A stretch of DNA of 64,000 bases from Eledone cirrhosa (Eukaryota). Position 1 is the stretch's first letter. Every line of letters begins with the position of its first letter. The stretch lies in NCBI GenBank assembly GCA_964016885.1, contig OZ024765.1, positions 19,096,001-19,160,000 of the forward strand. The letters are read 5' to 3'. This document shows, piece after piece, positions 8,701 through 11,480 of the stretch. The notes beneath the pieces were generated by a model that was given only the letters and a program-made list of their open reading frames with translations, made no database searches and was not told where the DNA came from. The position numbers and the translations under genes were made by a program.

Positions 8701-11480
8701 GTCTACATGCTGGTAGACCACCAGGGGGCAGTGGTGGTAGTGTTATGTCTACGTGTTGGTAGACCACCAGGGGGCAGTGGTGGTAGTGTTATGTCTACAT
8801 GTTGGTAGACCACCAGGGGGCAGTGGTGTAGTGTTATGTCCACGTGTTGGTAGACCACCAGGGGGCAGTGGTGGTAGTGTTGTGTCTACGTGTTGGTAGA
8901 CCACCAGGGGACCAGTGGTGGTAGTGTTATGTCTACATGTTGGTAGACCACCAGGGGGCAGTGGTGGTAGTGTTATGTCTACATGTTGGTAGACCACCAG
9001 GGACCAGTGGTGGTAGTGTTATGTCTACATGTGGTAGACCACCAGGGGGCAGTGGTGGTAGTGTTATGTCTACATGTTGGTAGACCACCAGGGGGCAGTG
9101 GTGGTAGTGTTATGTCTACATGTTGGTAGACCACCAGGGGGCAGTGGTGGTAGTGTTATGTCCACATGTTGGTAGACCACCAGGGGGCAGTGGTGGTAGT
9201 GTTATGTCCACATGTTCGTAGACCACCAGGGGGCAGTGGTGGTAGTGTTATGTCTACGTGTTGGTAGACCACCAGGGGGCAGTGGTGGTAGTGTTGTGTC
9301 TACGTGTTGGTAGACCACCAGGGGGCAGTGGTGGTAGTGTTGTGTCTACGTGTTGGTAGACCACCAGGGGGCAGTGGTGGTAGTGTTGTGTCTACGTGTT
9401 GGTAGACCACCAGGGGGCCAGTGGTGGTAGTGTTGTGTCTACATGTTGGTAGACCACCAGGGGGCAGTGGTGGTAGTGTTGTGTCTACATGTTGGTAGAC
9501 CACCAGGGGGCAGTGGTGGTAGTGTTGTGTCTACATGTTGGTAGACCACCAGGGGGCAGTGGTGGTTGTGTTATGTCTACATGTTGGTAGACCACCAGGG
9601 GGCAGTGGTGGTAGTGTTATGTCTACATGTTGGTAGACCACCAGGGGGCAGTGGTGGTAGTGTTATGTCCACATGTTGGTAGACCACCAGGGGGCAGTGG
9701 TGGTTGTGTTATGTCCACATGTTGGTAGACCACCAGGGGGCAGTGGTGGTTGTGTTATGTCCACATGTTGGTAGACCACCAGGGGGCAGTGGTGGTAGTG
9801 TTATGTCTACGTGTTGGTAGACCACCAGGGGGCAGTGGTGGTTGTGTTATGTCCACATGTTGGTAGACCACCAGGGGGCAGTGGTGGTTGTGTTATGTCC
9901 ACATGTTGGTAGACCACCAGGGGGCAGTGGTGGTTGTGTTATGTCCACATGTTGGTAGACCACCAGGGGGCAGTGGTGGTTGTGTTTTGTCCACATGTTG
10001 GTAGACCACCAGGGGGCAGTGGTGGTTGTGTTATGTCCACATGTTGGTAGACCACCAGGGGGCAGTGGTGGTAGTGTTATGTCTACATGTTGGTAGACCA
10101 CCAGGGGGCAGTGGTGGTAGTGTTATGTCTACATGTTGGTAGACCACCAGGGGGCAGTGGTGGTAGTGTTATGTCTACATGTTGGTAGACCACCAGGGGG
10201 CAGTGGTGGTAGTGTTATGTCTACATGGTAGACCACCAGGGGGCAGTGGTGGTAGTGTTATGTCTACATGTTGGTAGACCACCAGGGGGCAGTGGTGGTA
10301 GTGTTGTGTCTACATGTTGGTAGACCACCAGGGGGCAGTGGTGGTAGTGTTGTGTCTACATGGTAGACCACCAGGGGGCAGTGGTGGTAGTGTTGTGTCT
10401 ACATGGTAGACCACCAGGGGGCAGTGGTGGTAGTGTTGTGTCTACATGGTAGACCACCAGGGGGCAGTGGTGGTAGTGTTATGTCTACATGGTAGACCAC
10501 CAGGGGGCAGTGGTGGTAGTGTTATGTCTACATGTTGGTAGACCACCAGGGGGCAGTGGTGGTAGTGTTGTGTCTACATGTTGGTAGACCACCAGGGGGC
10601 AGTGGTGGTAGTGTTATGTCTACATGTTGGTAGACCACCAGGGGGCAGTGGTGGTAGTGTTATGTCTACATGTTGGTAGACCACCAGGGGGCAGTGGTGG
10701 TAGTGTTGTGTCTACATGTTGGTAGACCACCAGGGGGCAGTGGTGGTAGTGTTGTGTCTACATGTTGGTAGACCACCAGGGGGCAGTGGTGGTAGTGTTA
10801 TGTCTACATGTTGGTAGACCACCAGGGGGCAGTGGTGGTAGTGTTGTGTCTACATGTTGGTAGACCACCAGGGGGCAGTGGTGGTAGTGTTGTGTCTACA
10901 TGTTGGTAGACCACCAGGGGGCAGTGGTGGTAGTGTTGTGTCTACATGTTGGTAGACCACCAGGGGGCAGTGGTGGTAGTGTTATGTCTACATGTTGATA
11001 GACCACCAGGGGGCAGTGGTGGTAGTGTTGTGTCTACATGTTGGTAGACCACCAGGGGGCAGTGGTGGTAGTGTTGTGTCTACATGGTAGACCACCAGGG
11101 GGCAGTGGTGGTAGTGTTGTGTCTACATGTTGGTAGACCACCAGGGGGCAGTGGTGGTAGTGTTATGTCCATGTGTTGGTAGACCACCAGGGGGCAGTGG
11201 TGGTAGTGTTATGTCCACATGTTGGTAGACCACCAGGGGGCAGTGGTGGTAGTGTTATGTCTACATGTTGGTAGACCACCAGGGGGCAGTGGTGGTAGTG
11301 TTATGTCTACATGTTGGTAGACCACCAGGGGGCAGTGGTGGTAGTGTTATGTCCACATGTTGGTAGACCACCAGGGGGCAGTGGTGGTAGTGTTGTGTCT
11401 ACATGTTGGTAGACCACCAGAGGGCAGTGGTGGTAGTGTTATGTCTACATGTTGGTAGACCACCAGGGGGCAGTGGTGGT
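8701..11480 (+). repeat. 46-bp satellite, ~60 copies, nearly all with a CTCF-like motif
   Basis: Unit GTAGACCACCAGGGGGCAGTGGTGGTAGTGTTATGTCTACATGTTG; 2780/46 gives ~60 copies. Confidence 0.95.

Follow-up and report, generated by a model that had tools for sequence, protein, structure and literature searches.

CTCF-bound short tandem units are found next to TERRA promoters in the human subtelomeric 61-bp repeats, and the 3' super-anchor of the IgH locus is reportedly a cluster of co-oriented CTCF sites. The closest known system to the repeat described here is DXPas34, a minisatellite of the mouse Tsix promoter made by 34-bp monomers, each said to contain a CTCF site; in its rodent orthologues monomers measure 30–70 bp, and the motif is kept across rodents (PMC3149622; this and the other papers are cited for the parts of their text that were available). 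CTCF motifs are multiplied at a regular period also in the macrosatellites DXZ4 and ICCE, superloop anchors of the inactive X, in which the motif is conserved across mammals and the rest diverges (PMC6125249). Many sites oriented in the same direction mark the VH region of mouse IgH and synthetic tandem arrays (PMC6746451; bioRxiv 10.1101/2020.07.07.192526). No report of a CTCF-site minisatellite in a cephalopod or other invertebrate was found in the literature searched, which included few subscription papers, and the available part of the O. vulgaris repeat annotation (PMC13282606) has 0 mentions of CTCF.

A 46-bp minisatellite of the octopus Eledone cirrhosa has been analyzed in a window of 64 kb, the whole stretch of DNA under study. 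It is built like DXPas34, and by architecture only would be placed in the CTCF-bound regulatory class, as a candidate in terms of function. As in DXPas34, DXZ4 and ICCE, the motif resides in each monomer (58 of the 61 units), but the CpG-rich, methylation-switched binding of these systems is not a feature of the octopus array. DXPas34 is CpG-rich and tied to a known gene, whereas the consensus octopus unit has 0 CpG, and no gene was detected in the window. DXZ4 and ICCE have units of about 3–5 kb and ChIP-proven binding, in contrast to units of 46 bp and predicted binding. IgH VH and synthetic sites are flanked by unique sequence and lie further apart; here 58 sites are packed in 2.8 kb, with 27 bases between the 19-bp cores. 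The human 61-bp repeats are likewise short tandem units with a CTCF site, but are subtelomeric, and no telomere repeat is present in the TRF list of the window. The array is real and striking in the density of its predicted sites, its function being putative.

Organization of the array

The array is made by 61 co-oriented units arranged head-to-tail, the last of which is partial (Table 1). TRF assigns to it a period of 46, 60.9 copies and 96% matches, and the unit length falls within the 10–100 bp range of head-to-tail minisatellites and VNTRs. Spacing between the motif anchors of the 61 units is 46 bp in 50 instances, 43 bp in 6, 45 bp in 2 and 47 bp in 2. Averaged over the 61 units, deviations from the consensus are 1.16 per unit. 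Five of the six 43-bp units, grouped in one stretch, feature the same 3-nt deletion, spread by local duplication. CpG dinucleotides, missing in the consensus unit and in the motif, occur 9 times across the array, all from one variant located outside the motif. The (GTG)n-like tract of the left flank resembles the GT-rich tail of the unit.

Neither the unit nor its unique flanks have a second copy within the 64-kb window. The array contains no canonical G-quadruplex pattern, and no Rfam family covers it, the sole match in the window being a tRNA-like SINE head at 44090. The possibility that the array is coding was rejected because the period of 46 cannot be divided by 3, stops interrupt the read-through frames, and the array is not spanned by any frame of at least 120 aa.

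Exact unit patterns gave 0 matches in metagenome and viral contigs. A search of public runs at a share of 0.05 listed 2 runs, from one sample of one study, with no RNA run among those listed. Each contains a closed 76-base contig, in which the consensus unit runs back into itself and no further letters are present, and the tandem therefore exists in reads; the sample is possibly the source of the assembly to which the window belongs. Word depth of the closed contig is 102 and 114 in the two runs. Since a consensus 31-mer is repeated on average 25 times across the array, this depth would be compatible with one locus at low coverage. The right flank has no cover in the two runs, which proves nothing. 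No orthologous array in another species was found in the run, metagenome and viral contig searches.

Table 1. Coordinates of the minisatellite, of its relevant units and of its flanks in the 64-kb window.
Feature	Position	Strand	Identified by
46-bp minisatellite, 61 units	8699..11480	+	TRF, anchors, alignment to consensus
Exact CTCF core, first of 58 (positions 20-33 of the unit)	8718..8731	+	window scan
Last exact CTCF-core match	11460-11473	+	window scan
Unit 5, broken motif, 3 mismatches at best	8882..8928	+	alignment to consensus
Unit 7, broken motif, 2 mismatches	8975..9019	+	window scan, alignment
Unit 16, motif with one-base insertion, 2 mismatches	9388..9434	+	window scan, alignment
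Unit 60 (11414), motif-internal G>A, consensus-compatible	11395..11440	+	window scan, alignment
Five of six 43-bp units, common 3-nt deletion	10214..10523	+	anchor spacing, alignment
Left flank: G-rich minisatellite (20-bp unit, 19 copies), (GTG)n-like tract	8271..8698	+	TRF
Right flank: 63 bp unique AT-rich, then (TC)n and (AG)n tracts	11481..12040	.	TRF, self-comparison

The CTCF core

A preliminary description of this DNA had placed at the site about 60 co-oriented motifs resembling CTCF sites. The count is borne out: the core CCASYAGRKGGCRS is found with 0 mismatches in 58 of the 61 units, always on the + strand; elsewhere in the 64-kb window the core is missing even at 1 mismatch. The CTCF consensus quoted there is the human ChIP-chip one (PMC6746451).

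Sites were scored by consensus matches to human, mouse, chicken and HOMER reference sequences, which may differ from the specificity of the host CTCF; on this scale the unit shares 16 of 17 bases with the M2 probe of PMC11880201, 13 of 14 with the mouse VH CTCF consensus (mVH-CTCF) and 12 of 14 with the chicken HS4 site (both in PMC6746451), and 16 of 20 with the HOMER CTCF consensus (supplement of PMC13652810). The M2 probe is bound in vitro by fingers 3–7 of human CTCF with a KD of 98.4 nM (PMC11880201). Of 144 sites predicted at mouse IgH, 111 were found occupied in vivo (PMC6746451). The motif part of the earlier reading holds up, as the core is strong and a near-identical probe is bound by the human protein. 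Judged by its bases, the unit holds a strong CTCF core, of the site class predicted to be read by fingers 3–7, and the array is likely bound by a vertebrate-type CTCF where accessible. The upstream module, an optional part of CTCF sites read by fingers 9–11, is absent (1–3 of 9 bases in 46-bp units, 2–4 of 9 in 43-bp units). Because the consensus unit has no CpG, binding to the core would not be switched by CpG methylation.

Conservation of the motif within the array

Alignment of the 61 units to the consensus reveals 71 deviations, 6 inside and 65 outside the motif, a ratio inflated because five variants are present in 6 to 21 copies each. Counted once each, distinct variants are 5 inside and 12 outside the motif (14-mer, p 0.58; 18-mer, p 0.29), a split which is what motif length predicts, with no depletion in the motif. 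The earlier statement that nearly all the variation lies outside the motif is thus accurate per copy (65 of 71), and is not for distinct variants. None of the five spread variants falls in the motif (p 0.16 and 0.08), and the gap that they leave free exceeds what random placement predicts (p 0.047; the corresponding values are 0.29, 0.44 and 0.51 in three control arrays). The check on per-position variability suggested in the preliminary description hence gives a mixed outcome, spread variants leaning towards conservation and distinct variants not. Taken together, tests of the motif against the rest of the monomer range from p 0.047 to 0.58, several tests having been run; constraint on the motif within the array is borderline, and is to be taken as a hint only.

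Motif-internal changes are found in four units. One internal variant, that of unit 60, had been regarded as consensus-compatible, and this is correct; units 5, 7 and 16, missed at the time, lose the consensus. Each of the five common variants is concentrated in units close to one another (adjacency p 5e-5 to 0.013), the pattern expected from local duplication, either by slippage or unequal exchange.

Chance occurrence of the motif

Matches with up to 2 mismatches are 66 in the window versus 4.9 expected from a shuffle control, a comparison which misleads, as all copies derive from a single seed; the 58 sites are one event, not 58. The probability that a 46-bp unit contains an exact match by chance is 2.2e-5 with uniform bases, 2e-6 to 2e-5 under models of the rest of the window, and up to 2.5e-4 under models of the GC-rich flanks. 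An exact match was reached in 0 of 30,000 shuffles of the unit, and none of 10 other repeats of the window that were tested comes closer than 2 mismatches to the CTCF consensus. For a single array taken alone, a match by chance is unlikely. About seven such arrays reside in the 64-kb window, and 0.2–25 exact matches are expected per 100,000 arrays; a CTCF match somewhere in a repeat-dense genome is therefore expected. A genome which uses CTCF also holds real sites open to amplification.

Genomic context

(TA)n tracts, SINEs, LINEs and minisatellites abound in the window, about 68% of which is inside a mask of tandem repeats and LINE pieces. Ten long frames were scanned against Pfam: 5 are LINE ORF2 pieces, 5 have no match. 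Short frames outside the repeat mask are 172; the best 148, plus two frames of the (CAC)n tract, were scanned, and 0 of the 150 reached the Pfam cut-off. No host-gene domain above the cut-off was found in the 160 frames of the window (10 long and 150 short), a scan by which short exons would be missed. SINEs of the window are taken by us to be octopus SINEs. The array at 45078-46043, in which 74 bp of the adjoining SINE are repeated 13 times in tandem, is a minisatellite born from a SINE tail, and therefore arbitrary local sequence gets amplified in this window.

Other elements deserve mention. The minisatellite at 46796-51270 consists of about 95 copies of a 47-bp unit, and features on the - strand a word that differs from the CTCF consensus at 3 positions, or at 2 in three of the copies; its likeness to CTCF sites is within chance, and the array served as control. 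LINE ORF2 copies in which a PHD finger directly follows the reverse transcriptase are located at 24744-27944, 33811-35295 and 57859-59427. The layout is common: 1,279 homologues were found among 7,999 candidates scored, and PF00628 is present in many of the best 120 of the 1,279 homologues. A near-perfect 116-bp palindrome (6287-6402; z -17.6 versus shuffles) is found between (TA)n tracts, and further self-inverted stretches at 39253-39340, 40727-41002, 60922-61149 and 63033-63342, as well as one of 1.8 kb at 30517-32352; these stretches are likely foldback or MITE-type elements. The element at 4231-5190 (about 960 bp) has terminal inverted repeats of about 100 bp, 91% alike, and a GC-rich interior with no Pfam match, and is likely a non-autonomous DNA transposon. 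The region 22310-23035 hosts two inverted copies of a retroelement-like tail with a single C2H2-like finger, both below the Pfam cut-off. The C2H2 hints were rejected as exons, and are read as retroelement tails, because they are inverted copies of one repeat, of which a third partial copy is found near 16620-16900. The degenerate (CAC)n tract at 7268-7924 is Thr-, His- or Pro-rich according to the frame, which shifts often; it matches no Pfam family and is likely non-coding.

Origin and possible role of the array

On balance, the array is probably a young minisatellite, grown neutrally from one strong CTCF core and bound by CTCF where chromatin is open. One stretch carrying such a core would have been duplicated locally to yield 61 near-identical units, plausibly by slippage or unequal exchange, and the array would be of young age. 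Its seed may have been either a functional CTCF site or a sequence matching by chance. Host CTCF would bind via fingers 3–7, insensitive to CpG methylation, and any effect on chromatin folding would be a by-product. Neutral growth is favoured by the sharing of variants among neighbours, by the number of such arrays in the window, one of them born from a SINE, by the chance expectation for exact matches, and by distinct variants not being depleted in the motif, with the consensus lost in 3 of the 4 motif-changed units. Against it are the distribution of the spread variants, all of which avoid the motif, and the rarity of an exact match in any one unit.

The avoidance of the motif by spread variants would be accounted for by selection, if the array were a repeat-encoded insulator or one-directional loop anchor, in which co-oriented CTCF sites stall cohesin with a strength that scales with copy number. 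This we regard as unlikely. The 58 strong sites share a single orientation, as expected for an insulator cluster, and precedents are offered by DXPas34, DXZ4 and ICCE; however, conservation tests are borderline at best, the upstream module is missing, and the frames scanned in the window revealed no gene that could be insulated. In mouse cells insulation grows with the number of tandem sites and depends on their flanks, but 6 or 15 strongly bound non-boundary sites in tandem failed to insulate, according to the available text of bioRxiv 10.1101/2020.07.07.192526. CTCF binding does not imply a boundary. The effect of tandem number is seen also in AkitaV2 predictions, in which a flank of about 15 bp has influence and impactful sites are few (PMC11828424), but the arrays in the available text are made by 139-bp units, or have a 180-bp spacing (AkitaV2), not 46 bp.

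Squid has CTCF, and a CTCF-like motif is overrepresented at its TAD boundaries (PMC9023564). CTCF-like motifs were identified by Micro-C at loop anchors in three coleoid species (PMC13652810), but in the available part of the supplement of that work Sepia is the only species for whose loop anchors the canonical motif is given (997 versus 782 background windows); only the HOMER CTCF-SatelliteElement variant is listed for O. bimaculoides (467 versus 409), and a term search found no CTCF motif for Euprymna. Echinoderm boundaries show no CTCF orientation pattern in the available text of PMC13317027, and two reviews (PMC10658181; PMC10658182) state that neither extrusion nor motif directionality has direct support in spiralians. 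No sign of a selected insulator role is seen in the window, and the functional reading put forward in the preliminary description, as insulator, loop anchor or CTCF sink, is unsupported.

Alternatively, the motif may be a chance match unoccupied in vivo, the array residing in LINE-, SINE- and (TA)n-dense, likely closed chromatin, or being bound by another C2H2 protein. We consider this improbable as well. About two thirds of the window being inside the repeat and LINE mask would agree with it, as would the make-up of the unit, formed by GT-rich words like those of the flank. Models of the GC-rich flanks raise the chance of a match to the highest of the values given above. The same G-rich element, moreover, is also the INSM1 ChIP motif. 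Conversely, the match is exact, the consensus unit has no CpG, and with 58 copies binding would occur even at a low occupancy per site.

Hairpins had been attributed to each unit in the preliminary description. A 7-bp stem (ACCACCA/TGGTGGT) with nearly invariant arms can indeed be drawn in each unit, but one unit folds at -6.1 kcal/mol (z -0.76), and 42 of 200 shuffles are as good. Two units fold at z -1.37 on the + strand and -1.93 on the - strand, the latter equalled by 8 of 200 shuffles. Folding is not significant, and the unit hairpins carry no weight. That hairpins are the reason why the unit is maintained, or that it belongs to a mobile element as an internal repeat, CTCF likeness being a side effect of inverted arms, is highly improbable: the nearly invariant stem and the - strand dimer would favour it, but the single unit folds poorly, the GTCTAC arm of the other stem is changed in 14 of the 61 units, and the lack of a second copy of unit or flank in the window, and of an Rfam family over the array, speaks against a mobile element.

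Neutral growth of the array, which we favour, does not diminish its value as a test. Whether CTCF blocks loop extrusion in an orientation-dependent manner outside vertebrates is an open question, and a natural array of 58 putatively strong sites in the same direction is close to the strongest test of extrusion that a single locus may offer. A stripe or a boundary at the array would speak for extrusion of the vertebrate type in cephalopods, and a flat map against it, even if the array is neutral. It is a distant prospect that the octopus array is bound in vivo and acts as a chromatin barrier tuned by copy number, a repeat-born super-anchor in a spiralian. If this were true, runaway growth of minisatellites would be a route to new boundaries in cephalopod genomes.
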